Notes: generated by a model not told the origin, from the letters alone. A stretch of 64,000 bases of DNA from Candidatus Lindowbacteria bacterium RIFCSPLOWO2_12_FULL_62_27 (GCA_001784175.1 MFPR01000011.1:1-64000); one strand, 5' to 3'; shown: positions 1,697 through 55,880, counted from the first letter of the stretch. Program-made: numbers and translations.

Positions 1697-1710
1697 GCGG
1701 ACTCACTCCG

Positions 1711-3393: not shown

Positions 3394-4764
3394 ATGGCGC
3401 GGGAGGACCTCACGCTTGGTGTGGCCGTCGGCGAAGAGCAGGTGCATGGCGTGTGGATGGAGGGCGCGACGAAGGTCCGGTCGGAGGCCGTGCCGCTGGG
3501 GTTCCGGTCATTTGCCGACGCGCTGAAGGAACTGGTCGGCAAATCGCCTCGGGCGCCCGACTGCTTGGTTCTGGCGGTGCCGTTTCAACGGCTGCTCATG
3601 CGGAGCATCGAGATTCCGCCGGCGCCGGATTTGCCGCTGGGCCCGTTTGCCGAGCAGTTTGCGGCGACGGAGCTGCCGTATCCGATCGAGGAGGCCATCG
3701 TGGATTATTCGGTGGCGCAGACGCCCGGCGGCCGGCAGCTCATGCTCGTGGCGGGCCAGAAAAAGGATTTTGAGCCGTACCGGACGGCGCTGGAAACCAT
3801 CGAGGTCCCGAAACGCGTATCGATTCCGCTGACGCTGGCCTGTTTCAAGGCGGCGGACCTGCCGAAAGACGCTCCAAACGCGCTGTTCGTTTATTTCTGG
3901 CGTTCGAATCTCGAAATCCTGTGGTATTTTCACGGTCAGCCGAGATACTTGAGACTGGTTCCGATGCCGCTGGCGCGCGTGGTGGCCGGCGTGACGTCGC
4001 GGGACCCGGATTTTGTGGCGGCGCTGGCGGCGGAGCTTCGCGTTTCCGGAGAATTCATCCGCAAGCAGACCGGATCGGATTTGCGGCAGGTCTCGGCCAC
4101 GGTGGTGAGCGTCGATCGGCGGTTCGACGACCTGCCGACGCTGATTCAGCCCGATCTGCCCTTCCCGATCCGCTGCCGGCTTCTTGAGGGGCCGGAGGGA
4201 CTCATGCTGGCATCGGGCGCGTGCAGGGCCGTCCGCGCGGGCGACTGGGATTTGAATTTATTTGAACCGAAGAAATACAAGTCGGCCGAATCGGCGGCGC
4301 CGGCGGCGCGCGGCCGGGAGTGGATGGTCGTGTCGCTGGCGGCGATTCTCATCCTGCTGGTGCTGGCGACGGTCAAGACGCTGGTGGCGTACACGTGGGT
4401 CAAGAACGCGGAGGCGGAATCGCAGGCGATGTCGTCGGGCGGCGCGAACTCCGGAACGGTAGACGCACCCGCAGGCGCGGCCACGCAGCTCGCGGCGTTT
4501 TTGTCCGGCCCGGACGCGGTCGACGTCCTGGACCGGCTTGCCCGGGCTTTGCCGGAAGGCACGCAGATTCAGGACCTGACGATCGACGACGCGCAAGTTT
4601 CCATCCGGGGTCTCGCGGTGCGGTCGATGTCCGTCTATGAGGGTCTTTCCGAGGGCGGCTTTCGCGATATCCGTTTTCTTCAGGATGTCGTTCGCGCCGA
4701 GGGGTCGGACTTGGAGCAGTTCGGGCTGGCGGCGCGGCATCCTTTTGCGGCGGATGCCGAGTGA
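3394..4764 (+). CDS. GspL / PilM-PilN-like assembly platform protein
   Basis: Actin-like cytoplasmic part (ELPYPIEEAIVDY), one TM helix, and a PilN-like periplasmic domain (LARALPEGTQIQDLTI...SIRGLA); operon position. Confidence 0.7.
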   Translation: MAREDLTLGVAVGEEQVHGVWMEGATKVRSEAVPLGFRSFADALKELVGKSPRAPDCLVLAVPFQRLLMRSIEIPPAPDLPLGPFAEQFAATELPYPIEEAIVDYSVAQTPGGRQLMLVAGQKKDFEPYRTALETIEVPKRVSIPLTLACFKAADLPKDAPNALFVYFWRSNLEILWYFHGQPRYLRLVPMPLARVVAGVTSRDPDFVAALAAELRVSGEFIRKQTGSDLRQVSATVVSVDRRFDDLPTLIQPDLPFPIRCRLLEGPEGLMLASGACRAVRAGDWDLNLFEPKKYKSAESAAPAARGREWMVVSLAAILILLVLATVKTLVAYTWVKNAEAESQAMSSGGANSGTVDAPAGAATQLAAFLSGPDAVDVLDRLARALPEGTQIQDLTIDDAQVSIRGLAVRSMSVYEGLSEGGFRDIRFLQDVVRAEGSDLEQFGLAARHPFAADAE

Positions 4765-4771
4765 GGCCGCG

Positions 4772-5341
4772 ATGTTCCTGAAACGGCGCGTGAAGGGATT
4801 GGCGGGACCGGCGGCGGCGCCGCCGGCCCACGCGGCCGGCACAGCCGGCGCGTCGAAGGACCGATTGCGGATCATGCTTTTGGCGGGCGTCGGGGTCTTG
4901 TGCCTCGCCTATTGGATCCGTGTACGGCCAATGCAGGTCGAGACGGAAGAAATATTGACTTCGATCGAGTCGGGCGCGGCTGATACCGGCGAACCCGACG
5001 TGGATTTTCCGGCGGCGGCCTATGTCGAATCTCCGGAGAAGGCGCTTGCGATGTTTTATGCGGACGTGGAAGCGCACGTAAAATCGGCCGGGATGTCACT
5101 CGAAAGCCGGCAGGTCCGGGTCGAGCCGGACGATCGATACCCGGCGACGCCGATCATTTTTGAAGGGCGCGCCAAAGGCCGATGGCAGGCCGTGACGCGG
5201 TTTGCGGGCCTTGTGAGGTCCGCCACGCCGCGGATCCGTCTGACGAGGCTGACGCTGAACCGCGGTTCGGACGGGCGGGACGTCGAGATATTCTTCGAAG
5301 CGCGCGCGCTGGCGATGCCCCGCGCCGGCGGTGAGGCGTGA
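4772..5341 (+). CDS. GspM/PilO-like protein
   Basis: One TM helix followed by a ferredoxin-like domain (GRWQAVTRFAGLV...IRLTRLTL). Start uncertain (4754 or 4772). Confidence 0.6.
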   Translation: MFLKRRVKGLAGPAAAPPAHAAGTAGASKDRLRIMLLAGVGVLCLAYWIRVRPMQVETEEILTSIESGAADTGEPDVDFPAAAYVESPEKALAMFYADVEAHVKSAGMSLESRQVRVEPDDRYPATPIIFEGRAKGRWQAVTRFAGLVRSATPRIRLTRLTLNRGSDGRDVEIFFEARALAMPRAGGEA

Positions 5342-5922
5342 TGAAATTCGGCGCGGGATGGGAGCGGACGGTCCCCGGCGGCGTGGGGTTGGCGGTGCTT
5401 GCGGTATTCGGCTGGTCGGCGATCCGGGAACTGTCGGACCTTTCCGCGCGCATCTCCGGCGCCGGCGCGGTCGAAACGGAAAGGCCGCGGGCTGCCCGTC
5501 CGGCGGAATTTCTTGCCGACGAGATCGACACGCTGACGCTGAAGTGGTTCGGCGGGTCGGCGGTCAGGCCGGCGGACATCGTGCTGGCGCCGGTGGGCCG
5601 AAGAAGGATTCCAGTTCCGGAGCCGCCTCCGGAGGAGATGGCGGTTGTGGCCGAACCGATCGCGGAGACTGTGGCGGAGGTTGCAGCGCCCGAGGAGCCG
5701 GTGGAGCCGGCCGCGCTGTTTCCGGCCATGAAGTTGTCCGGGATATTCATCGGAGGCGCCGTGCAGTCGATCGTGGCGGAATTCGAGGGAACGAAGCGGA
5801 CGTTGGCGCTCGGCCAGGACATTCAGGGCTGGCGGTTGATTGACCTCCAGCGTTCCGCCGCCGTGTTCGAGTCGCCCGGCGGCCAGGTCGAAACCGTGCG
5901 GCTCTTCGCGAGCGCGCGATGA
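5338..5922 (+). CDS. GspC/PilP-like protein
   Basis: N-terminal TM helix, Pro/Glu linker, C-terminal beta domain (MKLSGIF...LALGQDIQGWRLI); lies just before the secretin. Confidence 0.6.
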   Translation: MMKFGAGWERTVPGGVGLAVLAVFGWSAIRELSDLSARISGAGAVETERPRAARPAEFLADEIDTLTLKWFGGSAVRPADIVLAPVGRRRIPVPEPPPEEMAVVAEPIAETVAEVAAPEEPVEPAALFPAMKLSGIFIGGAVQSIVAEFEGTKRTLALGQDIQGWRLIDLQRSAAVFESPGGQVETVRLFASAR

Positions 5923-8888
5923 AAATGTCGTTGCGGGCCGTCGTCGCGTGCGCCGCGTGGTTGGCCCTGTGGCTTTGGCCATGCGGCGTTACGGCCGAGG
6001 TGATCGAGGGCGATGCGGTGCTGGACCAGGCGCGTCTCTTGATCGACGCGGGCCAGCCCGAATCGGCGCGGGAGATTTTGTCATCGTACATTTCAAGCGG
6101 GGGCGTTCAAAAGGATCACGCCGAGTATCTGGCGGCACTGACCTCTTTTGCGGACACCGACCCGGAGGTCCCGCGGCGGGCGGTCGAGACGTTCCGGAAA
6201 AAGTTTCCGAATTCAAAATACGCGCCGATGGCCATGTACCGCCTCGGCCAGTTTTACCGCGTGACGCTCCGGGACCCGGACCGTGCGATTCAGGTCTACT
6301 CGCAGTTCATTCAGCAATTTCCCAAGGAGACGCTGGCGCGCGACGCGCACCTGTGGCTGTCCTCGGCCCTCATCGACGGCGGGCAGTACGACCGCGCAGT
6401 TTCGACGATCCATCAGGCGCTGTCGATTTATGAATATTCGCCTCAGGACAGAAACGTCCTCGAGGGGTTGCTCGATTTTGCGAAGCAGAGCACGCAGAGG
6501 ACCGTTTCGAGCGCCGCCGGCGGCGTGACAGTCGACGTCCGGCCCTCCGTCGCGACCGCGCCGGCAGGCGCCGCGCCAGTCGAACCGGTCGAGGCGCCGG
6601 AACGCGTGCCCGCTCGCGATGTGCGCCCGGACCGGACCGCGCCTTCAGCGCCTACTGCGGACCGGCGCGCGGCGGCGGACAGGCTGGAATCGGAAACAGA
6701 GCCGGGCGTGCTGATGAATTATCGCGACGCCGACATTGATGATGTGTTGAATTCGCTCGCGGAGGAGCTGGGACTGACCTTCATCAAGGACGAGGAGGTT
6801 CAGGGCAAGATCACCGTCATCAACCCGCGCAAACTCACTTCGACCGAGGCCATGCACTTGTTCGAGTCCATTCTGGAACTCAAGGGGTACGCGATGGTCC
6901 GGTCGGGGTCCGTTTACAAGATTTTGCCGGCGCAGAAAAGCCACACGCGCGGCCTCGATGTGTATCCCTCGGAAACGCCGCCGCCGCGCGAGGACCGGCC
7001 GGTCACCAAGATCATCCGCCTGAACCAGGCGCTGGCGCAGGATGTCGTCCAAACGCTTCAGCCCCTCCTCGGCGACGCCGGGACCCTGCAGGCCGACCTT
7101 GCCAAAAATTCCATCATCCTCACCGGCATGGGCTCGAACGTGTTTCGGCTCGAGTCGGTGGCCCGGTCGATCGACGGGGCCGGCGCGTCGGACCAGCACG
7201 AGGCGGTGGCGCTGAAATTTCTGTCGGCCGCCGAGGCGCTGCCTCTGGTGCAGAGGCTTCTGGCGACCACGCAGCCGGAAAATCTTGGATCGCTGAAACT
7301 CGTTGCCGGCCCGACGCCCGTCTATCTGTTCGCGGTCGGCCCGATGGAGATGATTTTCAAAGTCCGCGACATCGTGAAATTGATCGATGTGCCCGGCTAC
7401 AAGGAGGAGTCGCTGAAAGTATACGCGCTCAAGCAGGCCAACGCGGAGAAACTCGCGGGATTTCTGGAGACGCTCCTCGCCAAGGGCCTCGCCGGGACGA
7501 CGCCCGAGGGCGCGCCGAGCCGGCCGGGCGTGGTGAGCGCGGACCGGATGACCAACAGCATCGTGGTCCTGGGCTCGCGCGCGTTTCACGACATCATCGG
7601 CCCGCTCATCGACCGGCTGGACTACGAGGGCTTCGCGGCGTTCCGGGTCCAGGTCATTCCGCTGAAACATGCGGGCGCGGCGGACTTGGCGCAGAAATTT
7701 GAAAACATTGTCGCGCGCGGAATGGGCCCGCGGGGCGAAGCCTACAGCAACCAGATTCTGATCCAGGCCGACGCGCGGCTGAACGCGCTCCTGATCGCGT
7801 CGACGTCGCAGTCTCTGTTGAAAACGCTCGGCAGTCTCGCTTCGGCGCTGGACCGGCCGGCCGAGGAGGGCGGGCCGCGGACGATGGTCTATTATCTGGA
7901 AAACGGCGACGCCACCAAGCTCGTGACGGTCCTGAGCGACATTTTCTCCCGAACCGAGGGGCAGACGGTGCAGCCCGCGAAAATCGTGGCGGACCAGGGG
8001 ACGAATTCGCTGGTCATCGTCGCCATGCGCGAGAATTACGAAGCGGTCATGGAAACGATCATGAAACTCGACATCGCGCCCTACCAGGTCCTCGTCGAAG
8101 CGATCATCCTCGAGGTCACGCTGGATGAGAGCACCGATTTCGGCGTCGACTGGACCTGGAAAAAATCCAACTTCGACGTCAATCTGCGCGACGCGTCACC
8201 GACGACCGGGCTCAAACAGGCGGTCCTCAAGGACCGCAAGACGCTCGACGGCCTCATCTACGCGCTTGTGTCCAAGGCCAACACGCGCGTCCTGGCGACG
8301 CCGCGCATTTTCGCCGCCAACAACCAGGAGGCCTCCATCCTCATCGGCGACGAGGTCCCCGTCAAAACCGGAACGACGACCACCACCACCGGCGTCACGC
8401 AGAACACATTCGAGTACAAGGATGTCGGCATCAAGCTCACCGTCAAGCCCCTCATCAACCGCAAGCGCCAGACGGCGATGACCGTCACGCAGGAGATCAA
8501 GTCGATCCGCGGCACCACCGTCAGCGGCGTCAGCTCGGAAAATCCGGTCTTTCAGTCGCGCCAGACCAAGACCAACGTCATGCTGGAGGACGGCCAGACC
8601 GCCGTCATCAGCGGGCTGATTCGGACCGAACGCACCAAACAGCGGAGCAAGGTCCCGCTCCTGGGTGATCTGCCGCTGGTCGGCGCCGCTTTCCGCAGCA
8701 CCTCGGAGGACGACGTGCGGACCGAACTCATGGTCTTCATCACGCCGACGGTGATCGTCTCCCAGAAGGAAATGAAAGCGGCGGTCAAGGCGCAGAAGAA
8801 GGGCGGCGAGGACGCCGGCTTCGGCCCCGCCGACCTCACCCCGGACACGCCGCGCACGAAGTTTCTGCAGGATTTTATTTTGAAGTAA
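5919..8888 (+). CDS. gspD: GspD-like secretin with an N-terminal TPR/BamD-like domain and extra N-domains
   Basis: Signal peptide, TPR repeats (FPNSKYAPMAMYRLG), N0 domain, five Secretin_N-like repeats and a secretin core (QVLVEAIILEV...KVPLLGDLPLVGAAFRS...ELMVFITP). Confidence 0.9.
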   Translation: MKMSLRAVVACAAWLALWLWPCGVTAEVIEGDAVLDQARLLIDAGQPESAREILSSYISSGGVQKDHAEYLAALTSFADTDPEVPRRAVETFRKKFPNSKYAPMAMYRLGQFYRVTLRDPDRAIQVYSQFIQQFPKETLARDAHLWLSSALIDGGQYDRAVSTIHQALSIYEYSPQDRNVLEGLLDFAKQSTQRTVSSAAGGVTVDVRPSVATAPAGAAPVEPVEAPERVPARDVRPDRTAPSAPTADRRAAADRLESETEPGVLMNYRDADIDDVLNSLAEELGLTFIKDEEVQGKITVINPRKLTSTEAMHLFESILELKGYAMVRSGSVYKILPAQKSHTRGLDVYPSETPPPREDRPVTKIIRLNQALAQDVVQTLQPLLGDAGTLQADLAKNSIILTGMGSNVFRLESVARSIDGAGASDQHEAVALKFLSAAEALPLVQRLLATTQPENLGSLKLVAGPTPVYLFAVGPMEMIFKVRDIVKLIDVPGYKEESLKVYALKQANAEKLAGFLETLLAKGLAGTTPEGAPSRPGVVSADRMTNSIVVLGSRAFHDIIGPLIDRLDYEGFAAFRVQVIPLKHAGAADLAQKFENIVARGMGPRGEAYSNQILIQADARLNALLIASTSQSLLKTLGSLASALDRPAEEGGPRTMVYYLENGDATKLVTVLSDIFSRTEGQTVQPAKIVADQGTNSLVIVAMRENYEAVMETIMKLDIAPYQVLVEAIILEVTLDESTDFGVDWTWKKSNFDVNLRDASPTTGLKQAVLKDRKTLDGLIYALVSKANTRVLATPRIFAANNQEASILIGDEVPVKTGTTTTTTGVTQNTFEYKDVGIKLTVKPLINRKRQTAMTVTQEIKSIRGTTVSGVSSENPVFQSRQTKTNVMLEDGQTAVISGLIRTERTKQRSKVPLLGDLPLVGAAFRSTSEDDVRTELMVFITPTVIVSQKEMKAAVKAQKKGGEDAGFGPADLTPDTPRTKFLQDFILK

Positions 8889-8989: not shown

Positions 8990-11900
8990 TTAACCTTCGT
9001 AATACAAGGACACAAACACGCGGCCGGGAGCCGAATCCAGGAACCGATCCCGGATCGTTCGACAGGCGGCCGCCCACCGGGCCATCTGGGATTGCAATAT
9101 CCTCGTGATCAGACACGCCGCCGGATAGTTGATGGCCGCGTCGTCGCCGCCTGAACTGCCGGAACTGCTCCCGTCCGAAATTTCAAACCCACCGGGATCC
9201 ACCACGACGCCGTTGGCAACACCGTCGAGGTCGCCGGTGCCGCCGTCGGTGAGGGTCAGGAACACCTCGCTGTCGCCGTCGTGGCTGGTCAGGCTGGAGG
9301 TCATGTCGAGCCAGCCGTTGGCGGCGTCGAAGATGAAATACTTGGCCGTGACCGGCACGCTCTCCGGCATGTCGAGCGAGATCGTGATCGTGCCGCCGAT
9401 CGCCACGCCTTCGCATGTGAACGCGATGAGGCCGAATTTGAAATTCGTCGAAGGCTTCTCGGCCCGGCCGGTGTCGGACACCTCGTCCTCGAACTTCACC
9501 CCACCCAGCGTCGTGAACTTTTCGTCGCCGCCATTTTTGAGTTTGAACCCGATGGGTCGCGTGTCGCGCGCGAAGGGATTCGTGTCGAGCCTCTTGGCCG
9601 CTGTTGGCGTGATCGCCAGCGTCTCCGTCGCCGTCGTGAAACTCCGGGTCGTCATCCACGCCGACCACCCGCCGCGCGCATCGCAGAACCGCGCGCGCCA
9701 GTAATGCTTTTGCGCGCCCCGGAGTAGCCCGCGCGGGAATTTGAACCGCAGCCCCGCCATCTCCGCCGGGATCACGACGTTCACGCGCATGTGCATGTTG
9801 TCGAAGATCGACGTGGAGTCCGCCGCCTGCCAGTGCGTGCATTTGTGGGTGTCGCCGTCGGCGTCCGAGTAGCCGGTGATCGTGATCTCACCGCTTGGCG
9901 CGAAACCCACCGCCGCATCTGCGGGGGATGAAGGACTTGGCGCGGACGGACTCGTATTGAGAGACGACACCGCCGTGACGGGTTCGCCGGCGACGGGAAG
10001 GCCCGCAAAGTTGAACGACGCGCCGCTGCTTGCCGTCGCCGTGATATCCGAGGCCGACGCCACCAACGCGACAAAGGTCTGTCCGGCCGTCGCCGTGCCG
10101 GCGAAACTGTACGTCACGACAAGATACATCGGCTTGTCCTTCGTGAGCGACACCGAAAGCCCGCTGAAGGTCACGCTCCCATTGTCCGCCGTGACCGTTC
10201 CACTGCTCCCAAGTTGCGTGTCACCGGTTCCGTTGCCGTCCCCGTCCTGCCAGAGCTTCACGCCGGACGCGGAGAGCGCCGTCACGTCGTTTCCTGAACC
10301 CCCGGCGGTAACCTTGATGGACGACAACGTCCCGTTGCTTTTCGGCCCAATCACGATCTGGATCACCGGCAAGTCGGAGACCGCGCCGAAAACCGATTGC
10401 GGCGGCGGATTCGACGCGCCACGCCGGATAAAGGCGAACGCGGCGTTGCCGGTGTCCGTCGTCAGTATCGAATCCGAGAACCAGGATTCATTCACAATCG
10501 GCCACGTGTCGAAGGACGTGAGGCGATAGTAATAATTGTTCCCGGCGGTCACGCTCGTGTCCGTCCACGTCGTGACCGTTGGTCCGACCTGCGCAACCCT
10601 CCCCGCCGCCCAGTCGGTCGTGTCCGTGCGGTTCACGATTCGATAAATTCGTATGCCGCCGAATCCGGTCAGGACGGTGTTTTCTTCGTCCGCGGCGGGG
10701 TTCGTCCAAGAGAGCACGGGTTGGCCACTCGTGTTTTTGGTGATTGAAATATTCTGTGGGGCTTTCGGTGCGACTGTGTCCGCTCCCGGTGTGGTATCGA
10801 CCAAGCCGAGGCGAAATGGTTTGAATGTGATTTTTTTCGTTGCCGACGTATCGGCGATCATCTTATCAATTCGTTGCTCGTCGGTTGTCCCCCACCAATT
10901 GCGACTAAAATCAAACGGTTTACCTGTGTTGATGAAGACGCCTGAATCAGGCCAATACAACGAAGTTCGGATATTGTTTTTTTGAAAGGTGTCCATGGAC
11001 GCGCTACCCCATATAAACGAGGGTAAACCTTGGGCCAATGTGAATTGGTACGCTGTGTTTGAGTCCATATCGTTTTGATAGAAAAAGCTGTTGTTCGCAT
11101 TTCCGATAGCAAATGCATCGCCGGGTACTGCTGTCGCTCCCAACCCTCCCCCCGTCCCAGTCTCAAGGCCGGGCCACCGCGTCGCCCTTATAAGATTATG
11201 GGCAATTATATTACTGTCACTGCCTCTTCCGATGTTGTAAACGCTGCTTGCGCCCACACAAATACCCGCTCCAAAATTTGACACAATAAAATTCTGCAAA
11301 ATTTTGTTGTCGGAACTTCCGGCGAGCCTGATACCACAGTTTTCATTGTATCGGGCCGTATTGCCACTGACAACATTGCCCGTGCAACCCTCCAGTGCGA
11401 TTCCATTATCCGCATAGTACTCCACAGTGTTGTTGGATATCAAATTATTGGAGGCCCCGGCGGCGGTGAGCACTATTCCAGAAAACGAGCTGCCCATTCC
11501 CTTTCCGGTCATCGTATTGTTGGTGATAGTATTCCACGAACTGTAAATAAGGATCGTCGATCCAGTGCAGACATTGTTGCTGATGAGATTGGAAGTCGAC
11601 ACCCCAGAAACCTCGATGCCTCCTTTGAATATGCTATCCGACGTGATGGTCGATTGCGTCACATTCCGAAAGTCAATCAGCCCCTCAAGCAGACCAATGT
11701 TTTTTATCAATAGACCCGTTTGGGAATCGGCGTATATTCCGGTCCCTGTTCCAGGGGGATCGATGACTGTCGTGGCAGAATCTTTACCTACGAGAGCGAC
11801 ATTGTCCGTATCGATTGCGACGGTTTCCGCATATAGACCAGCATCGACAAAAACAGTGTCCCCAGATTTCACAGTGGCCATTGCCTTTGCGATCGTCCTA

Positions 11901-12061
11901 AAAGGTGCGCTTGCGACACCGGCACTGCCGTCGTTGCCGACGGCGGTCGTGTAAGCGTCGCCTGCGGTTGAAGTGTCGTTGACGTACCAATTTGCGGCGT
12001 AGATTGCCTGACAAAGAAACAAGTGTGACACGAAACCCCAAACCAGCCTACGGGTGACCAT
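8990..12061 (-). CDS. Large secreted surface protein: parallel beta-helix (NosD/pectin-lyase-like) + FN3/Ig-like modules + choice-of-anchor-U-like domain + CFI-box-CTERM-like tail
   Basis: Signal peptide ending IYA|ANWYVND; NNxIxxN beta-helix repeats; WTDTSVTAGNNYYYRL (FN3); LTLTDGGTGDLDGVANGVVVDPGG; Gly/Ser linker then CLITR...RTIRDRFL...GRVFVSLYY. Confidence 0.8.
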   Translation of the reverse strand: MVTRRLVWGFVSHLFLCQAIYAANWYVNDTSTAGDAYTTAVGNDGSAGVASAPFRTIAKAMATVKSGDTVFVDAGLYAETVAIDTDNVALVGKDSATTVIDPPGTGTGIYADSQTGLLIKNIGLLEGLIDFRNVTQSTITSDSIFKGGIEVSGVSTSNLISNNVCTGSTILIYSSWNTITNNTMTGKGMGSSFSGIVLTAAGASNNLISNNTVEYYADNGIALEGCTGNVVSGNTARYNENCGIRLAGSSDNKILQNFIVSNFGAGICVGASSVYNIGRGSDSNIIAHNLIRATRWPGLETGTGGGLGATAVPGDAFAIGNANNSFFYQNDMDSNTAYQFTLAQGLPSFIWGSASMDTFQKNNIRTSLYWPDSGVFINTGKPFDFSRNWWGTTDEQRIDKMIADTSATKKITFKPFRLGLVDTTPGADTVAPKAPQNISITKNTSGQPVLSWTNPAADEENTVLTGFGGIRIYRIVNRTDTTDWAAGRVAQVGPTVTTWTDTSVTAGNNYYYRLTSFDTWPIVNESWFSDSILTTDTGNAAFAFIRRGASNPPPQSVFGAVSDLPVIQIVIGPKSNGTLSSIKVTAGGSGNDVTALSASGVKLWQDGDGNGTGDTQLGSSGTVTADNGSVTFSGLSVSLTKDKPMYLVVTYSFAGTATAGQTFVALVASASDITATASSGASFNFAGLPVAGEPVTAVSSLNTSPSAPSPSSPADAAVGFAPSGEITITGYSDADGDTHKCTHWQAADSTSIFDNMHMRVNVVIPAEMAGLRFKFPRGLLRGAQKHYWRARFCDARGGWSAWMTTRSFTTATETLAITPTAAKRLDTNPFARDTRPIGFKLKNGGDEKFTTLGGVKFEDEVSDTGRAEKPSTNFKFGLIAFTCEGVAIGGTITISLDMPESVPVTAKYFIFDAANGWLDMTSSLTSHDGDSEVFLTLTDGGTGDLDGVANGVVVDPGGFEISDGSSSGSSGGDDAAINYPAACLITRILQSQMARWAAACRTIRDRFLDSAPGRVFVSLYYEG

Positions 12062-12557
12062 GTTTTCTGAAAAAGTCTCTCTGGTGTTCGTAATTCCTCG
12101 AATCCCGCGCGATGGCGGTGTATCGATCGAATTCGGCCTTGGTTATCCGATTGAGCGTTGGACGATAAACTCGAACAAGTCGTCCCGGTGGGATTCGAAT
12201 CACACTCCCGTTAGGCGGTCGGATTATCCATTTCATTCGTAACAACCTGCCGAAATCACCACCTGGCGTGGTCCCCAAAAGCGGATTCCAGTCGGTGTCT
12301 GTGTAACGGTAATACGACTCCCTTACCAGCCCAACGGCGCCGATTCGCCGGGCAAGAAGATAGGCGATGACGCCGTCGCCTTTCCTAATTTGTCTTGCGC
12401 AATTTTCGAAGGCTTTCCAAGCTTTGGGATGATTGACCTTATAATGCGACTTCGGCGGAAATCCACCAGCACAAACCAATTTCCTTCTACAAATATCCCA
12501 GAGATCATTCCATTCAGGCCTACGAATTGCAGGAATCTCGAATAGCCAGTGATTCAC
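12048..12557 (-). CDS. Hypothetical protein, EVE/PUA-like fold (resembles N-terminal domains of restriction-associated proteins)
   Basis: MNHWLF...QIRKGDGVIAYL...IGAVGLV...LRMKW pattern; RBS GGAGGTGG; AT-richer than the flanks. Confidence 0.5.
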   Translation of the reverse strand: MNHWLFEIPAIRRPEWNDLWDICRRKLVCAGGFPPKSHYKVNHPKAWKAFENCARQIRKGDGVIAYLLARRIGAVGLVRESYYRYTDTDWNPLLGTTPGGDFGRLLRMKWIIRPPNGSVIRIPPGRLVRVYRPTLNRITKAEFDRYTAIARDSRNYEHQRDFFRKHGHP

Positions 12558-12571
12558 GCTCCACCTCCCGA

Positions 12572-12711
12572 CAAAAAAGGGCAGGACGCCCAGAAACTTC
12601 GTCCTCGCCGGGAAGACTCAGACGGGTTTCCATTTCGGACGCCCCGCCCACGTGAGTAGGCAGAGCCGTCCCGTCTGAGTAACCTCGATATCCAATCGCT
12701 TCCCGGCGAGT
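12572..12711 (-). ncRNA. Candidate structured leader RNA ending in an intrinsic terminator-like hairpin
   Basis: Nested perfect inverted repeats 12604-12615/12699-12710 and 12616-12626/12670-12680, an inner hairpin, and GGGCG-TCC-TGCCC-TTTTTT on the minus strand. Confidence 0.45.
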
Positions 12712-12745
12712 TTAGGCGCGGCCGAAGCCGCAACGTGTATATTTT

Positions 12746-12784
12746 CACAAATCCCCGGCCGAAACACAAGGCGAAACGGGATCG
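12746..12784. repeat. 39-bp repeat A, copy 1
   Basis: CACAAATCCCCGGCCGAAACACAAGGCGAAACGGGATCG, followed by GAAACCGGATTCCGG, which is shared with copy 4. Confidence 0.95.
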
Positions 12785-12807
12785 AGAAACCGGATTCCGG
12801 CCGCGGC

Positions 12808-12836
12808 TTGCCGGATTGATGTTGTTGCGATACAAT
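12808..12836 (+). promoter_or_regulatory. Sigma70-like promoter
   Basis: TTGCCG-N17-TACAAT. Confidence 0.6.
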
Positions 12837-12898
12837 CAGACTGTGAATTTCCGGAATGTTGAGCGCCTCGTCGATCGGGAAAAAGATAGAGTTTGTAC

Positions 12899-13381
12899 AT
12901 GGCGATGAAACGGGTGTACATTGAGACGACGGTCGTGAGTTACCTCACGGCAAACCCGGCTCGGGATGTAATCGTCGCCGGGCATCAGGAGGCAACCCGT
13001 GAGCTTTGGCCGCGCCTTGCCGCCGGATACGAGGGCTACGTTTCCGCGCTTGTTTACCAGGAGGCGGGGAAGGGGGATCCGGAAAAGGCCGGATTGCGTG
13101 TTGAGGCCATCAGGTCATTCCGCATGCTGGACATTGATGCGGAGTGCCGGACACTCGCCGAAAAGATCATTGCCGGTAAGGGCATACCGGGAGAGTATCC
13201 GGAAGACGCGCTTCACATCGCCGTCGCGGCCGTCAACGGGATGGATGTCGTCATCACATGGAACTTTGCGCACTTAAACAATCCGTTGACCCGCATGGTG
13301 GTCAGGCGGATTGTCGAGAGCGCGGGATATGGGTGTCCGGAGCTGTGCTCACCGGAAGAACTGCTGGAGGCGGACAAATGA
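12899..13381 (+). CDS. PIN-domain (VapC-like) toxin
   Basis: KRVYIETTVVSYL...EDALHIAVAAVNGMDVVITWNFAHL; start at 12899 or 12905. Confidence 0.88.
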   Translation: MAMKRVYIETTVVSYLTANPARDVIVAGHQEATRELWPRLAAGYEGYVSALVYQEAGKGDPEKAGLRVEAIRSFRMLDIDAECRTLAEKIIAGKGIPGEYPEDALHIAVAAVNGMDVVITWNFAHLNNPLTRMVVRRIVESAGYGCPELCSPEELLEADK

Positions 13382-13566
13382 AAGATCCCATAGTGGAAGA
13401 GGTGCGAAAACACCGAATGGAACACACCCAAAAATTTTCGGGCGATCTTGCGGCCATATGCGCCGACCTGCGCTCTATTCAATCGGCATCGGGATTTCAG
13501 GTCGTCCGTCTCTCCCCGAGGAAAGCCGAGCCGGTTTTCACAGCAGAAAAAAAAGAAACCGCCTGA
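13378..13566 (+). CDS. Small putative antitoxin partner of the PIN toxin
   Basis: MKDPIVEEVRKHR...DLAAICADLR; ATGA overlap with the PIN gene. Confidence 0.75.
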   Translation: MKDPIVEEVRKHRMEHTQKFSGDLAAICADLRSIQSASGFQVVRLSPRKAEPVFTAEKKETA

Positions 13567-13730
13567 TTTCAAAAAAAGGGCCGGTTCGAATTTAAGGTGA
13601 GGCGTGCGAACGGGCAGCGCGGTTTGCGGAAGGAAAAACGATTTTTTTAAGTTGAGGCGGGCGAAGGGATTGACTGCGATTTTTTGTCTGTTTATTTCGG
13701 AAGACGGCAACAGCCGCGGCCATCGGATTT

Positions 13731-13769
13731 CACAAATCCCCGGCCGAAAGACAAGGCGAATCGGGATCG
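13731..13769. repeat. 39-bp repeat A, copy 2
   Basis: 2 mismatches to copy 1; closed by a GGATTT/AAATCC inverted pair. Confidence 0.95.
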
Positions 13770-13780
13770 TAAATCCACAT

Positions 13781-13809
13781 TTGACAATACACCAAAACTG
13801 ATGTATATT
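13781..13809 (+). promoter_or_regulatory. Sigma70-like promoter, probably producing a leaderless mRNA
   Basis: TTGACA-N17-TATATT, with a GTG start 6 nt downstream. Confidence 0.75.
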
Positions 13810-13815
13810 TCCCCT

Positions 13816-14169
13816 GTGTACGCGGTCATTTACTACAGCACGGAACGCGGAGACCGGCCGGTCCTTGAGTTCCTGGACAACCTGGACAAAAAGTCCCGCG
13901 CGAAGGTCATGGCCCATATCGACCTGTTGGCTCAATACGGTCCCGATCTGAAACGGCCATACGCGGATCATGTCCGGAGGAAGATTCGGGAACTCCGGGT
14001 TCAGATGGGTTCAAAAAAATACCGGATTTTGCATTTCTTCTTTTTTGAAGGGCGAATCGTATTGCTCCATTCTCTGCTCAAGACAACGCCGAAGCTGAAG
14101 GAAAGCGATATCGCCTTGGCGGAAAGCCGGATGGCTGACTGGATCGCCAGACATCCGAGAGGAGGTTGA
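13816..14169 (+). CDS. RelE/HigB-family toxin (Gp49/DUF891-like)
   Basis: PVLEFLDNL...LAQYGPDLKRPYADHV...IRELRV...YRILHFFF...IVLLHSLLKTT. Confidence 0.88.
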   Translation: MYAVIYYSTERGDRPVLEFLDNLDKKSRAKVMAHIDLLAQYGPDLKRPYADHVRRKIRELRVQMGSKKYRILHFFFFEGRIVLLHSLLKTTPKLKESDIALAESRMADWIARHPRGG

Positions 14170-14175
14170 ATTGCG

Positions 14176-14472
14176 ATGAGAAAACCGAAGATCAGAACAT
14201 TTCAGGAACATCTCAAAAAGGAATTGAAAGATCCCGAATTCCGGAAACATTTTGAGGAAGAGCGCCGGGCGCTGGCGCTTGCCATGAAAATCGTCAAACT
14301 CCGGCAAAGACGAGGATTGACCCAGAAAGATTTGGCAAGGGCGATGCGAACGAGCCAGCAGGCGGTTTCCAGGATCGAAAGCGGGGAATACGAAGGCTTT
14401 ACTTTAAAAACGCTTGAAAAGATTGCCGAAGCAACCGGCTCACGTCTGAAGATCGACCTTTTGCCGGCGTAA
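14176..14472 (+). CDS. HigA-like XRE HTH antitoxin
   Basis: LKDPEFRKHFEE...LRQRRGLTQKDLARAMRTSQQAVSRIESG; RBS GGAGG. Confidence 0.9.
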   Translation: MRKPKIRTFQEHLKKELKDPEFRKHFEEERRALALAMKIVKLRQRRGLTQKDLARAMRTSQQAVSRIESGEYEGFTLKTLEKIAEATGSRLKIDLLPA

Positions 14473-14511
14473 CACAAATCCCCGGCCGAAACACAAGGCG
14501 ACACGGGATCG
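14473..14511. repeat. 39-bp repeat A, copy 3
   Basis: Begins immediately after the TAA of the HigA-like gene; 1 mismatch to copy 1. Confidence 0.95.
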
Positions 14512-14651
14512 TGACAGGACTTGGAGACAAAGGGACAAGGAGACGAGGAGACTTGGGGAGGATGTCCGACGGCGCCGACCAACTCGCATCCGACCGCCGG
14601 CAGTTGCTGCCAAAGCTTGCTTCGCTCCGTTTTGTGCGGTAGCTTGTGGAC

Positions 14652-14897
14652 ATGAACATTCAAATTGATGAGGATACGGCTGGAAGTCTGAACCTGACCG
14701 AAGACCAACTGCGATTTGAGTTGGCGGTGGGGCTCTTCGTCGACAACAAGTTGAGCCTGGGCCGGGCCGCGCGCGTAGCCGGAATGGACAGCATCCAGTT
14801 TCAACGGGAGTTGGCCGCCCGGCGCATCCCATTGCATTACGGGGTCGAGGAATTCCGCCAGGATTTGAGGACCATTGAGAGTCTGTCTGCCCATTGA
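14652..14897 (+). CDS. UPF0175-family antitoxin
   Basis: LRFELAVGLFVDNKLSLGRAARVAGM...FQRELAARRIPLHYGVEEFRQDL; promoter TTGCTT-N17-TAGCTT at 14617-14645. Confidence 0.88.
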   Translation: MNIQIDEDTAGSLNLTEDQLRFELAVGLFVDNKLSLGRAARVAGMDSIQFQRELAARRIPLHYGVEEFRQDLRTIESLSAH

Positions 14898-14949
14898 TCG
14901 TCGTTAGCGACACGTCACCCTTAACCAATCTGCTCTCCATCGGCGCGGA
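14894..14949 (+). pseudogene. Truncated DUF3368-type PIN toxin (only about 18 N-terminal codons)
   Basis: The TTG overlapping the UPF0175 stop reads MIVVSDTSPLTNLLSIG, the usual partner N-terminus, then runs into the repeat/palindrome. Confidence 0.8.
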
Positions 14950-14980
14950 GTCAAGAGATGTGGGCCGTCAAGAGATGTGG

Positions 14981-15033
14981 GCCGCTCTTGACTTTTTGAC
15001 TTTTTGCCACAAAGTCAAAAAGTCAAGAGCGGC
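14981..15033. repeat. 53-bp perfect palindrome B, copy 1
   Basis: Arms GCCGCTCTTGACTTTTTGACTTT / AAAGTCAAAAAGTCAAGAGCGGC (23 bp) with a 7-nt loop; preceded by 2x GTCAAGAGATGTGGGCC. Confidence 0.95.
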
Positions 15034-15080
15034 ACCGGGCCCGGGCCCGAGATAGACCACGGCCGGCGTAGGTCGGAGTT

Positions 15081-15119
15081 TCAAAATCCCCGGCCGAAAC
15101 ACAAGGCGGATCGGGATCG
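15081..15119. repeat. 39-bp repeat A, copy 4
   Basis: TCAAAATCCCCGGCCGAAACACAAGGCGGATCGGGATCG followed by GAAACCGGATTCCGG. Confidence 0.95.
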
Positions 15120-15192
15120 GGAAACCGGATTCCGGACGATGTTCAGTGAAAACGCGCTTGCCAAATTCAGCGGAGGCGGGGATAATGGACCC

Positions 15193-15411
15193 ATGAAGAA
15201 CACACTGCAGGATTTAACGTCGTTGTCTGTTGCAGAGCGGATTCAACTCGTCGCCGATCTCTGGGACAGCATCGCCAGAACGCCCGCGAAGGTGCCGGTT
15301 CCGATGTGGCAGAAAAAGGAATTGGACAGGCGGAAGGCCCGATTCCTCAAGAATCCCGGCTCGGGAATGACATGGGAGCAATTCAAACGGTCCGTCAACG
15401 GCCGTAAATGA
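15193..15411 (+). CDS. Addiction-module antitoxin (TIGR02574-like)
   Basis: LSVAERIQLVADLWDSI...WQKKELDRR...MTWEQFK; promoter TTGCCA-N17-GATAAT at 15158-15186. Confidence 0.88.
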   Translation: MKNTLQDLTSLSVAERIQLVADLWDSIARTPAKVPVPMWQKKELDRRKARFLKNPGSGMTWEQFKRSVNGRK

Positions 15412-15707
15412 TTCATGATCTGATTCTGTTGCCCGAAGCCTGTCAGGATATTCTCGACGCCGCAACGTGGTACGAGGGACAATCCGACGGACTGGGCACG
15501 GAATTCTTTCGTTGCATAGATGCCTGCGTCAATCTGATTCGCCGGCAACCGTTGATCTACGGGATTCTTCACCGAAATTTTCGACGAGCGCTTGTCCGAC
15601 GTTTTCCCTATGCTGTTTTCTTCGAAGTCGACCGCAACGCGGTCGTCATCTATTCCGTATTCCATTGTGCGCGGAATCCATCCGCATGGCGGAATAGAAT
15701 CCAATAA
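15408..15707 (+). CDS. RelE/ParE-family toxin
   Basis: PEACQDILDAATWYE...GLGTEF...RRALVRRFPYAVFF...VFHCARNP. Confidence 0.9.
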   Translation: MIHDLILLPEACQDILDAATWYEGQSDGLGTEFFRCIDACVNLIRRQPLIYGILHRNFRRALVRRFPYAVFFEVDRNAVVIYSVFHCARNPSAWRNRIQ

Positions 15708-15825
15708 ACGACCGGCGGCCTCCGCTCGCCTCTCCGAGATAAAATAGATCGAAACCCGAACCCGCGCCTGGCGCTCCTGCGGGCGGATCGAGATACTTGC
15801 CTCGGTGGGTGAGTTGTAGTCCCGG

Positions 15826-15934
15826 TCAGCCGGGCCGTCCGGCCCGGAGAAGCACTGCGCCGAACAGGACGACCGTAACGGCGACGCAGAGGTACGGCAG
15901 GACCCATCCGAACCGGTGATAGATCGTCCGGTCC
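15826..15934 (-). repeat. Stranded duplicate of the 3' end of the lnt gene at 17381-18799
   Basis: 15854-15934 matches 17418-17498 (81 bp, 2 mismatches) and continues in frame to ...FGAVLLRAGRPG-TGA (15826). In addition, 15726-15746 = 17398-17418. Confidence 0.92.
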
Positions 15935-15967
15935 GAAAAGAAAAAAAAGGGGGCCGCTCAAAAAGGG

Positions 15968-16020
15968 GCCGCTCTTGACTTTTTGACTTTTTGCCGCAAA
16001 GTCAAAAAGTCAAGAGCGGC
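15968..16020. repeat. 53-bp perfect palindrome B, copy 2
   Basis: Same arms as copy 1 with one loop difference; flanked by short tandem duplications on both sides. Confidence 0.95.
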
Positions 16021-16041
16021 ACCGGGCCGCGGCACCGGGCC

Positions 16042-16302
16042 GCGCATGCGGACGAAGAGGCGCGCGAAGACGGGCTGACACGCGAGGAAGTTTACGATTC
16101 GGTTATTCGCGGTGAAATCATAGAGGACTATGCGGACGACGAGCCTCATCCAAGCTGTTTGATCTATGGCACGATCAAGGGGAAGCCGGTTCACAGCGTT
16201 TGGTCATACAACGCGAAAAATAAATCCACCGTGCTGGTCACCGTTTATCGGCCTGACCCCAAACAGTGGATCAACTGGAAGGAAAGGAGAAAAGCGAAAT
16301 GA
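16042..16302 (+). pseudogene. DUF4258-family toxin-like gene lacking its native N-terminus
   Basis: HADEEA...GEIIEDY.DD.PHPSCLIYG...PVHSVW...VTVYRPDP..W; the only in-frame start is the TTG at 15991 in the palindrome loop. Confidence 0.75.
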
Positions 16303-16544
16303 AACTTTTGGACAAGTGTCCGGTTTGCTCCGGCGAGATCGTAGAAAAAGGAGTTCGAAAACTTTTGGAGGGCGGCAGCAACCACACGGCAATCATGAAA
16401 GTCGCGGCCGAGGTCTGCCTGCACTGCGGCGAACGATTCTATTCCGATGCGACCGTCAAACGATTTGAAGAAATCCGGGCCAAACTGGAGCGGCAAGAAA
16501 CGGCGGGTCTTCAAAAAGTAGGACTGACCTTTCAGGTGGTTTGA
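16299..16544 (+). CDS. YgiT/MqsA-type zinc-finger antitoxin-like protein
   Basis: KCPVCSG...AEVCLHCGERFYS; the usual partner of DUF4258. Confidence 0.88.
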   Translation: MKLLDKCPVCSGEIVEKGVRKLLEGGSNHTAIMKVAAEVCLHCGERFYSDATVKRFEEIRAKLERQETAGLQKVGLTFQVV

Positions 16545-16778
16545 TTCGCCCTGATCCTCTGTAAGATATAAGCTGCGGGACCCTGTGTCATTGTTCTACT
16601 TTGCTACTTTCGCCTGCCGTGAAACATTGTCACTGCGAATCATGAAACCGAATCCCGAACCCGCCGCCGGTCGCGGAGGCCGCCGGAACGGGGTGCGGCG
16701 GACGTTTTGCGGACGTTCCCGAATGGTGACCGAATTGCAACGCTTGAAATACTTTCGCCTATGCGGTAAGAATTACAC

Positions 16779-16850
16779 ATGAACGTGCGCATCGAAGGTG
16801 TTGAGATGGACCAATTAAATCTGAGCGAGTCCCAGCGTAGAGCGGTTTGA
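16779..16850 (+). pseudogene. Probable second UPF0175 N-terminal remnant
   Basis: MNVRIEGVEMDQLNLSESQRRAV* aligns by eye with MNIQIDEDTAGSLNLTEDQLR at 14652; its stop overlaps the BrnT-like start. Confidence 0.45.
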
Positions 16851-17140
16851 ACTTGAAGATCGCAGAAATAATCTGGAAGGAGAAATTTGTCGAGAAACTG
16901 GAGGTTCTGCACCCTGTTTCGACGGACGAGGTCGAAGAGATCATTTGCGGAACGGAGAAATTCTTTCGGATGAAAAGGGGCAAGGTCAAAGGCGAGGATG
17001 TATATCGGGCCGGAGGGCAAACGGAGGACGGTCGGTTCCTGACGGTATTCTTCATTTACAAGAAACGACGGAACGCCGCGTTGCCGATCAGCGCGCGGGA
17101 AATGGACGACAAAGAAAGGAGACGATACAAACGTGAATAA
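16847..17140 (+). CDS. BrnT-family toxin
   Basis: IIW...VEKL...H.VSTDEVEE...YRAGGQTEDGRFLTVFFIYK...PISAREMDDKERRRY. Confidence 0.88.
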   Translation: MNLKIAEIIWKEKFVEKLEVLHPVSTDEVEEIICGTEKFFRMKRGKVKGEDVYRAGGQTEDGRFLTVFFIYKKRRNAALPISAREMDDKERRRYKRE

Positions 17141-17393
17141 AGTCAAAAAGCTTCCGGACGAGTTCGGCGGTGACGAGGCGGCAGGGAAGTTCTGGGACAC
17201 TCACTCATCCGCCGATTACGAGGATGAAATGACGGAAGTCGAGATGGAAGTCGACATCCGCAGGCGGACGTTTCTTGTCCCGGTCTCGGATCGGATATAT
17301 CGGATAGCCAAAAAGCGGGCCGCGGCCAAACGGTGTTCCGTTCAAGCGATTATCAATACTCTCCTGCGCCGGGATCTGGTTCAAGCAAGGTAA
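17133..17393 (+). CDS. BrnA/CopG-like antitoxin
   Basis: KKLPDEF...EAAGKFWDTHSSADY plus an RHH-like C-terminus. Confidence 0.85.
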   Translation: MNKVKKLPDEFGGDEAAGKFWDTHSSADYEDEMTEVEMEVDIRRRTFLVPVSDRIYRIAKKRAAAKRCSVQAIINTLLRRDLVQAR

Positions 17394-18799
17394 CCTTTCG
17401 CCTCTCCGAGATAAAATACTGCGCCGAACAGGGCGACCGTAACGGCGACGCAGAGGTACGGCAGGACCCACCCGAACCGGTGATAGATCGTCCGGTCCTT
17501 GCGGGCGGCAATCGTTGCGGTCAGGACGCCCTCCTTATTCAGCGCCAGAGACGCCACACGCCGCCCGGCCGGATCGATCGCTTCCGACGGCCCTGATGAG
17601 GACGCGCGGACGATCCAGCGGCGCGATTCGACCGCGCGGAACGACAGGAGCGCCGCGTGCTGCAGGCGTTCGACGTTTCCCCATTCCGCCGGATCGTAGG
17701 ACGGAACGAGGAAAAATTCGGCGCCGAGACCGGTCAGGCGTCGGGACAGGTCGGTGAAGTTTTCGTCGAAACATATCTGAACGCCCGCGACCCCGTGCGT
17801 CGTCGGAAACACTTCGCGGGCCGGCCGGCGCGCGAATCCTCCTCCGAAAAATGTTTTCTCCATCAGCGGCACGAGATGAACTTTGGTGTGCCGTCCGAGA
17901 TATTTTCCTTCCGGGTCGAAGACGAGCGCGCAATCTTCGGGGTTCTGCCGCGCCATCGGCGAGGACCCCACGATCGCGCCGGCGATCAGATGCGTATTCC
18001 AGCGGCGGGCGAGTCCGGCGAGGGGGTCCAGCGCGGCTGTGTCCAGCGCCGGAATGGACATGGCGCCTTCCGGCCAGATCAGAAAGTCGCGCCGTTCGGC
18101 TGCGGCTTGCTCGGAGAGTTGGTATAGCCGGCCGGACGCGTAGTCCTCGTGTTGGACCGCCGCCACGCGGATGTCGCCGGGTGCGACCTCGGGCGTCAGC
18201 GTCCGGCCGCCCGCGTAGAGGGCGATGGCCATGATCAGCGCGGCCAGACCTGCCGCCCAGGACCCGCCAAGCGCGGCCGCGAGCAGGCCGTTGACAAGGA
18301 CCACGATGAAACTCAGCCCGTACACTCCGATGATGCTTGCCCACTGGAGCACGGCCGGCGTGGAGTGAAAGGCCGACCCGGGCGTGAGCCACGTGAATTC
18401 GAACCACCAGAGTTCCGACCGGAAAAACTCGAGCCCGACCCAGACCGCCGCGGCAGCCACCGCGCGCGGGAGACGCGGCCACGACGCTGTCGAGAAATAC
18501 CAGAGCGCGAACAGCGCGGGCCACAGCGCCAGAAGGACCCACAGGGACACCGCCGCGGGGCCGAACAATCGCGTGAGCCAGAAAAGGCTCAACACGCAGA
18601 GGACGAGTCCCGCCGTCAGGCCCAAATAAAACGCCGTGCGCGCGGAGCCCGCGCGCTGAGCTGCCCACAGGAGGGGCAGGAGCGCAATCCAGATGAGAAT
18701 AGATATGGATCGCGGTGGGAGCGCCAGATGAAGGAGAACCCCTGTACAGACTGCGGCCGCGAATCCTGTCAACGCCGACATCTGAGAGGAGCGAATCAT
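17381..18799 (-). CDS. lnt: Apolipoprotein N-acyltransferase (Lnt family), copy 1
   Basis: Multi-TM N-terminus, WVGLEFFRS, nitrilase triad WPE / KVHLVP / ICFD. Confidence 0.85.
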   Translation of the reverse strand: MIRSSQMSALTGFAAAVCTGVLLHLALPPRSISILIWIALLPLLWAAQRAGSARTAFYLGLTAGLVLCVLSLFWLTRLFGPAAVSLWVLLALWPALFALWYFSTASWPRLPRAVAAAAVWVGLEFFRSELWWFEFTWLTPGSAFHSTPAVLQWASIIGVYGLSFIVVLVNGLLAAALGGSWAAGLAALIMAIALYAGGRTLTPEVAPGDIRVAAVQHEDYASGRLYQLSEQAAAERRDFLIWPEGAMSIPALDTAALDPLAGLARRWNTHLIAGAIVGSSPMARQNPEDCALVFDPEGKYLGRHTKVHLVPLMEKTFFGGGFARRPAREVFPTTHGVAGVQICFDENFTDLSRRLTGLGAEFFLVPSYDPAEWGNVERLQHAALLSFRAVESRRWIVRASSSGPSEAIDPAGRRVASLALNKEGVLTATIAARKDRTIYHRFGWVLPYLCVAVTVALFGAVFYLGEAKGYLA

Positions 18800-55548: not shown

Positions 55549-55880
55549 GTTTTCTGGGGATGGCGCCGTTTTGAAAAAATGGTGTGTTTTCCGTCAAAGC
55601 AGACCCGGAATCGGTCCAATCCCTGAAATCGACCGAGGAGCGGGGGGACGCGGCTGTCGGATGAGAAAACGACCCGCATCATGAACGCCATCGGCCCGAT
55701 TCGGCACGGGAGAGGTTTTTTGCAAAAATATCCGGCTGCGGATCCTCCGACGCCATGGGATTGGATCGGACGGCAATCTTCTTTCAAGGATATCCCCAGA
55801 ACTTTCGCCAGGTTGTGCGGCAGATACGTCAAATCCGCACCGCTGTCGACGATCACATCGATGTCCTGCCAGAACCCCGC
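55491..55880 (-). pseudogene. Retropepsin-like (clan AA) aspartyl protease fragment
   Basis: IVDSGAD motif, GVGG flap and LLGR; the N-terminus appears truncated. Confidence 0.6.

Follow-up and report, generated by a model that had tools for sequence, protein, structure and literature searches.

A repeat-bounded array of toxin-antitoxin modules beside lnt in a Candidatus Lindowbacteria genome and its possible origin by serial insertion of small units

Small co-oriented gene units split by a repeated element are a feature of integrons, and chromosomal integrons hold toxin-antitoxin (TA) cassettes with their own promoters, according to two accounts (PMC8618304; PMC4889954). Tandem accretion at the 3' end of a gene and cis-mobilizable elements (CIMEs) lacking an integrase are described in another source (PMC5704250), and the H47 island of E. 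coli is reported to lack an integrase and to be cut out between its short direct repeats by a host function that is unidentified and does not depend on RecA (PMC5426353). In this study, we analysed a stretch of 64,000 nucleotides from Candidatus Lindowbacteria bacterium RIFCSPLOWO2_12_FULL_62_27 (GCA_001784175.1, MFPR01000011.1:1-64000; the window hereafter), in which an array of TA modules, punctuated by a 36-39 nt direct repeat (repeat A), lies next to lnt, the gene for apolipoprotein N-acyltransferase. We found no published description of repeat-bounded TA arrays outside integrons and the pdif modules of Acinetobacter plasmids, which is not proof of their absence in print.

The array consists of six co-oriented and mutually unrelated type II TA modules, all on the + strand between 12893 and 17393 (Table 1). 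Both partners gave a family match in four of the six pairs (HigBA, ParD-like/ParE, DUF4258/YgiT and BrnTA), and by their predicted products the six pairs are ordinary type II TA modules of the addiction or defence kind. The 62-aa open reading frame (ORF) presumed to be the partner of the PIN toxin gave no match in family searches. The order of the parts is A1-PIN, A2-HigBA, A3-UPF0175/stub, then B1, A4-ParDE and L1, a spacer of 31 nt, and finally B2, DUF4258/YgiT, BrnTA and L2-lnt, where B denotes a palindrome and L a copy of the lnt 3' end. Each boundary between units carries a direct repeat, namely A (four times), B (twice) or the lnt 3' end (twice), and the layout of B, cassette(s) and L occurs twice in succession. 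The two B...L units have nothing in common between B and L, and the two modules proximal to lnt are devoid of repeat A.

The four copies of repeat A are all on the + strand, differ by 0-2 mismatches over 36 nt and show pairwise identities of 92-97%. They stand before the first four modules, upstream of the promoter-like sites described below, and the window holds no further copy; likewise, no copy of A or B was detected in the 59 kb outside the array. None of 100 shuffles contained a match, and a profile built from the four copies recovered each of them at E values from 9e-17 to 4e-15, the next-best match in the window reaching only 1.5. Pairing of ATCCC with GGGAT and of GCC with GGC would let the repeat form a weak hairpin, which includes a variable triplet. 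Units measured from one copy to the next are 985, 742 and 608 bp long and comprise, besides the repeat, one TA pair and a promoter-like site. No other coding debris was recognised in the array, as none of the 87 further frames of 40 aa or more, read from stop to stop between 12000 and 17700, gave a Pfam match. Two possible origins of repeat A were rejected. First, for a coding remnant, 11-mers of its six translations had no near match at up to three mismatches elsewhere in the window or in the three loci returned for Lnt (L001-L003). Second, derivation from lnt or from a tRNA was excluded by sequence comparison and a tRNA scan.

The modules also stand out by composition. GC content at third codon positions (GC3) is 0.52-0.71 in the TA genes, 0.51 in the divergent gene orf169 and 0.55-0.58 in the adjoining surface protein gene, versus 0.77-0.84 in the flanking core genes, and the GC content of the cassettes (0.51-0.58) differs from unit to unit. 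Besides a short insertion sequence (IS) fragment at the window start, the interval of about 10,000-17,400 is the sole large low-GC block of the window. The foreign islet probably spans 8990-17397, beyond the TA array alone, because the GC3 of the surface protein gene is 0.55-0.58 throughout; orf169 is counted in the islet because of its low GC3.

The third kind of boundary is formed by a second copy, 101 nt in length, of the lnt 3' end (L1), located 1.56 kb away from the genuine one (L2). This duplication brackets an insert of 1.46 kb holding the two lnt-proximal modules and has the form classically left when DNA inserts at a gene's 3' end. Block 15854-15934 of L1 matches 17418-17498 at 79 of 81 nt and block 15726-15746 matches 17398-17418 at all 21 nt, so that the pair is 97.5-100% identical. 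Both L copies start at the same nucleotide, just past the point where a cassette ends, ParE in one case and the unrelated BrnA in the other; the ParE stop codon lies 18 nt from L1, and BrnA converges on lnt, its 3' end covering 13 nt of that gene, the stop codon included. L1 has a core-like GC content of 0.65. In another assembly, Lnt (P0001, on a contig of 13 kb) is identical at 470 of 472 residues, and the only differences, D435A and H440P (window 17480-17497), fall among the opening six codons of the duplicated block, which suggests, at the level of the protein alignment, that they mark a real recombination edge at the joint of the lnt block. The two blocks of L1 are separated by a segment of 107 nt (15747-15853) with a host-like GC content of 0.69, which continues in the lnt frame to an alternative C-terminus (LLRAGRPG, stop) followed by a GC-rich hairpin. 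This segment could be the original lnt tail with its terminator or a later insertion.

Palindrome B is near-perfect, 56-68 nt long and present in two copies that agree at 62 of 63 nt (98%); none of 200 shuffles folded as well. Each copy adjoins a damaged toxin gene, and these are the two sharp cut-offs of the array. The DUF3368-like gene that follows UPF0175 stops after 19 codons at B1; the 53-aa ORF of this stub had no Pfam match and, being so short, bears the label DUF3368 only tentatively. At the other site, the start region and native promoter of DUF4258 are replaced by B2, and the sole in-frame start is a TTG within B. Both truncated genes encode toxins and the antitoxins are intact. This is the pattern expected if TA addiction filters deletions, and it accords with genuine selection acting on TA loci. 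Tandem duplications, exact or nearly so, lie beside both copies of the palindrome and take in outer bases of B: one of 17 nt (14950-14984) precedes B1, and two of 15 and 13 nt (15945-15974 and 16016-16044) flank B2. Slippage at the B hairpin is a possible source of these small duplications. In an Rfam search of 12400-17500 at E<=5, matches to microRNA models, far below threshold, fell on the B hairpin and none on A.

Sigma-70-like matches were located upstream of four of the six modules (PIN, HigB, ParD-like and BrnT), and the region holds seven such sites versus 2.0 +/- 1.5 in shuffles; all of them are consensus matches only. The initial annotation had described six different co-oriented TA modules, the first four of them preceded by a 39-bp repeat, with no integrase, transposase or attC site in or near the array. 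The six modules and the four direct copies of the repeat were indeed recovered, the latter nowhere else in the window, and the Pfam and motif scans given below were negative. Its statement that most modules have their own promoter agrees with the consensus matches at four of six, and its several modules cut at sharp junctions come down to two cut-offs, both at palindrome B.

Table 1. Features of the TA array and its flanks, in window coordinates
Feature	Position	Strand	Remarks
Beta-helix surface protein (NosD / Beta_helix / DUF1565)	8990..12061	-	1023 aa; start overlaps orf169
orf169	12048..12557	-	divergent from array; GC3 0.51
Repeat A1	12746..12784	+	core 39 nt; likeness to A4 continues to 12800
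Promoter-like site, PIN	12808-12836		
PIN-domain toxin gene	12893..13381	+	PF01850, 26.4 bits (cut-off 23.6), E 1.2e-5
62-aa ORF, presumed PIN partner	13378..13566	+	ATGA overlap with PIN
Repeat A2	13731..13769	+	
Promoter-like site, HigB	13781-13809		11/12 matches
Gp49/HigB-type toxin	13801..14169	+	122 aa; E 2e-22; identical to P0059
Helix-turn-helix (XRE-type) antitoxin, HigA	14176..14472	+	stop codon flush with repeat A3
Repeat A3	14473..14511	+	first base after HigA stop codon
UPF0175 antitoxin	14646..14897	+	E 1.5e-19
19-codon stub, toxin gene downstream of UPF0175	14894..~14950	+	ends at 17-mer duplication and palindrome B1
Palindrome B1	14979..15046		26-nt arms of TTGACTTT octamers; DNA fold -40 kcal/mol, z -7.1
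Repeat A4	15081..15119	+	94% identical to A1 over 52 nt, 15084-15135
Promoter-like site, ParD-like antitoxin	15158-15186		
TIGR02574 / Unstab_antitox antitoxin (ParD-like)	15196..15411	+	
ParE-family toxin	15408..15707	+	E 6.7e-7
L1, displaced copy of lnt 3' end	15726..15934	-	two blocks, 107 nt between
Palindrome B2	15966..16033		DNA fold -39 kcal/mol, z -5.6
DUF4258 toxin-like gene	15991..16302	+	domain complete from profile position 3
YgiT-type zinc-finger (MqsA-like) antitoxin	16266/16299..16544	+	TIGR03831, 38.9 bits (cut-off 20.2)
Promoter-like site, BrnT	16744-16773		
BrnT-like toxin	16847..17140	+	27.4 bits, under Pfam cut-off 34.5
CopG/BrnA antitoxin	17133..17393	+	28.2 bits (cut-off 28)
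lnt (apolipoprotein N-acyltransferase)	17381..18799	-	core gene; GC3 0.78
L2, lnt 3' segment	17398..17498	-	codons 435-467; duplicated as L1

Detection of recombination genes and of known attachment sites gave negative results throughout. No integrase or resolvase family was matched by Pfam among 16 + 42 + 87 + 61 translations, and the array proper yielded TA domains only, with no recombinase debris in or beside it. A regular expression for attC R''/R' pairs spaced 40-150 nt apart, written from the attC consensus, found none in 12500-17500 and none in the window as a whole. Rfam at gathering thresholds had no match in the window, and ARAGORN found no tRNA or tmRNA there that could serve as an attachment (att) site. 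The only match to mobile DNA is a C-terminal fragment of DDE_Tnp_1 (IS4/IS5-type; 3-521, + strand, E 6e-11), which is cut by the window edge, lies in the low-GC first kilobase 12 kb from the array, and has no sequence similarity to A, B or L.

Comparison with the described systems shows partial likeness in each case. Like an integron, or an attC-site cluster that has no integron integrase (CALIN), the array has co-oriented small units split by a repeated element, and as in a CALIN no integrase is nearby. In contrast, repeat A is only 36-39 nt long, has neither an R''/R' pair by that expression nor a significant fold, precedes each unit and is absent after the last A-bearing unit, while two of the six modules do without it. 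Membership in this class was rejected, as neither an attC pair in that expression search nor a Phage_integrase match was found. With accretion islands and CIMEs, as PMC5704250 describes them, the array shares units stacked beside a gene with no integrase; a direct repeat of the target gene 3' end surrounds the lnt-proximal 1.46 kb insert only. The units here are 0.6-1.5 kb long, carry no trace of transfer or integration genes, and are mostly bounded by repeat A instead of target-gene sequence. Among the marks of an accretion island, we thus found the target-gene duplication and the absence of an integrase only, and the 87 non-TA frames of the array gave no Pfam match indicating remnants of an integrative and conjugative element (ICE) or an integrative and mobilizable element (IME).

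Two further systems move by means of recombination functions supplied from elsewhere. H47 is likewise a small island with short direct repeats at its ends, no recombinase of its own and host-provided mobility, but it stands alone instead of forming an array and is not based on TA genes (PMC5426353). The pdif (XerC/D) modules are small, often TA modules bounded by short sites, with the recombinase encoded elsewhere. Their sites are 28 nt long, alternate in orientation and reside on plasmids; repeat A, unlike these, is 36-39 nt long, always direct and chromosomal. Inspection of A by eye against the dif consensus showed no dif-like motif, and no tool test was made. A CRISPR (clustered regularly interspaced short palindromic repeat) array was rejected, as the spacings of 985, 742 and 608 nt hold TA operons and no Rfam CRISPR-DR (direct repeat) model matched A. 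For repeats of the REP or BIME type, which are dispersed in many intergenic copies across a genome, the comparison covers the 59 kb beside the array, where neither A nor B has a copy. Because the integron tests fail and the signs of accretion were found only in part, we class the array as of a repeat-bounded cassette or accretion type that lies outside every named family.

The explanation that we favour, at what we judge to be an even chance, is that small units of promoter plus TA pair were inserted serially beside lnt by way of repeats, with junctions duplicated in the manner of att sites. The islet would be a composite of several separate insertions beside the lnt 3' end, each of them made by recombination at a short sequence that was left duplicated at the boundary of the insert. 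From the repeats and their positions we infer the following order of events, together with circular intermediates and the type of recombination. First, a founder unit, A-ParDE, would have come to lie directly beside lnt. Second, three small circles or segments, each comprising a TA pair together with a promoter and an A site (PIN, HigBA and UPF0175/toxin), may have been added at A; three insertions plus one resident site would account for the four copies of A. Third, and most recently, a segment with B, DUF4258/YgiT, BrnTA and a duplicate of the lnt 3' end may have recombined within the 101-nt lnt segment, which would have displaced L1 and produced the periodic layout of B-ParDE-L followed by B-DUF4258/YgiT-BrnTA-L. 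The event at B and L would be younger than those at A, because the B copies (98%) and the L copies (97.5-100%) are more alike than the pairs of A (92-97%). Deletions at B would have taken parts of two toxin genes and of no antitoxin. A dedicated recombinase, if there is one, might be encoded elsewhere in the genome or have been lost, or host recombination might have acted on the short repeats, alone or together with it.

Several observations weigh against serial insertion. The array is a single locus without comparative support. Only four relatives of Lnt at least 59% identical were found among 5.8 billion proteins; three loci were returned for Lnt, of which L001 (59%) is the only true relative; gene order around its lnt is not shared, TA genes are missing downstream of that gene and GC content is uniform (63-72%). 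A further Lnt (P0002), 75% identical, lies on a contig of 6 kb. The profile of A reached at best E 0.63 on L001-L003, the exact 20-base core of A had no match across 185,579 species at one genome per species, and blastn of the array DNA against plasmid and phage collections returned no match. As to the repeat itself, it has no significant fold (RNA folds of 4 + 2 stretches, z -1.73 to +0.60) and no recognised recombinase core-site architecture, and no recombinase was found in the window. Furthermore, A is not part of lnt, so that events of the A type and the L type require two distinct junction sequences, and palindrome B has no assigned role. The 107-nt segment in L1 is unexplained, the C-termini of relatives being too variable to decide, and, had ParDE once abutted a functional lnt via the left junction of L1, the frame would close only through that segment.

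The initial annotation had inferred a hotspot in which cassettes are gained and overwritten by a trans-acting mechanism, resembling an integron array with a different boundary element. The hotspot is partly supported by the internal anatomy, that is, the boundary repeats, the minimal units, the composition, the lnt duplication and the truncations that spare the antitoxins, but it has no comparative support, given the missing matches to the A core and the lack of synteny at L001. The trans-acting part could not be upheld, having been drawn from an absence only, as no recombinase was identified. The likeness to integrons holds for a repeat-bounded array; nevertheless, because B and the lnt duplication reveal more than one kind of junction, the array is not a uniform integron-like one.

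A sharper version of the second step of serial insertion is that A is the site of a non-integron cassette-capture system, in which cassettes of one promoter and TA pair each are integrated at A, and cut out again, by a recombinase encoded elsewhere. We hold this as a tentative possibility. The four co-oriented copies lie exactly at cassette boundaries, one of them directly behind the HigA stop codon with no base between, the units are highly compact, and A is absent from the remaining window. The repeat has outer 5-bp inverted repeats (ATCCC...GGGAT), and at 36-39 nt this falls in the size range of simple recombinase sites. Set against these points are the lack of a recombinase gene in the 64 kb, the restriction of A to four copies at one locus, the absence of its core from the 185,579 species genomes and the two lnt-proximal modules without A. 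Homologues of HigB were also searched for an N-terminal extension derived from A. HigB belongs to a 90% cluster seen on 10 contigs, with one relative at 89%; of 406 significant matches in the set of 5.8 billion proteins, none of the 120 that were listed carries the extension, a test of low power in which the listed matches reach over at most 76% of the extended ORF.

A second alternative, distinctly unlikely in our judgement, is that larger elements (ICEs, IMEs or prophage-like elements) were integrated in tandem at lnt and decayed, leaving att scars and TA genes in the manner of a CIME. The geometry of the lnt 3' duplication agrees with it, and one source describes tandem accretion, integrase-less CIMEs and TA modules as frequent cargo of such elements (PMC5704250). 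Yet decay is disfavoured because the units are compact, with none of the 87 inter-cassette frames showing pseudogene remnants of other function; four independent decays to precisely a promoter and a TA pair are improbable, and A is part of neither lnt nor a tRNA.

It is very unlikely that no special mechanism was involved, that is, that ordinary horizontal transfer with illegitimate or homologous recombination accumulated the TA genes, A being a cis element (an insulator, a host-factor site or a local repeat resembling repetitive extragenic palindromic elements) spread by local duplication or gene conversion, and the periodicity of B and L arising by tandem duplication and then replacement of content. 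TA genes commonly cluster in islands, two successive B...L units are the pattern of tandem duplication, and the 17, 15 and 13 nt duplications around B suggest slippage-prone DNA. However, these units share nothing between B and L, so that an extra replacement step is needed, and the same 39-nt sequence before four unrelated operons with different promoter-like sites is hard to obtain without recombination there.

Least probable of all is an assembly chimera, in which strain alleles of the region downstream of lnt that share B and L were strung together: although the source is probably a metagenome assembly, its relatives being metagenome-assembled genomes or metagenome contigs only, and the periodic layout resembles concatenated alleles, we consider it highly improbable because the longest exact shared runs (37 nt in L, 32 nt in B and at most 29 nt in A) are short for a mis-join and the L copies differ, L1 having the 107-nt segment and two substitutions that L2 lacks; the join from L1 to B2 moreover has its own 31-nt sequence, and it makes biological sense that neither truncation touches an antitoxin.

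If A, perhaps together with B, were the attachment site of an undescribed non-integron cassette-capture system that stacks TA or defence cassettes by lnt with a recombinase encoded elsewhere, which we regard as doubtful, it would represent a second route, independent of integrons, by which bacteria build up a store of small cassettes with their own expression at one fixed place in the chromosome; the lineage here is uncultured, and the cassettes are addiction or defence modules. The idea is testable, since the three different junction repeats imply particular excision circles, and particular empty sites, that should show up among metagenomic reads. If the locus is only a decayed accretion island, it would be a tidy case of TA genes outliving their carrier elements, with deletions hitting toxins and not antitoxins.

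The gene orf169, divergent from A1, occupies the position that intI has in an integron. It was considered as a hidden recombinase and rejected, having no Pfam, NCBIfam or PADLOC match. Its product is nearly an orphan, with one 99% copy, a cluster (P0017) seen on 2 contigs and 42 distant relatives; in 13 of the 28 relatives scanned, the orf169-like domain is joined to a C-terminal NucS_C or NOV_C nuclease domain, and a PDB profile search with the family matched the nuclease part only. From this domain arrangement, orf169 looks like a stand-alone sensor or binding half of a PD-(D/E)XK nuclease family. Just upstream of the islet lies a type IV pilus / type II secretion cluster (1555-8888, + strand), which encodes a T2SSE ATPase, a protein resembling PilN and a 989-aa TPR-secretin. 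In addition, the window contains a second lnt paralogue (LNT_N + CN_hydrolase; 53926-55548, + strand), where there is no low-GC islet, and a small ORF (55491-55856, - strand) with a weak match to retropepsin-like aspartyl proteases convergently overlaps the 3' end of this paralogue.

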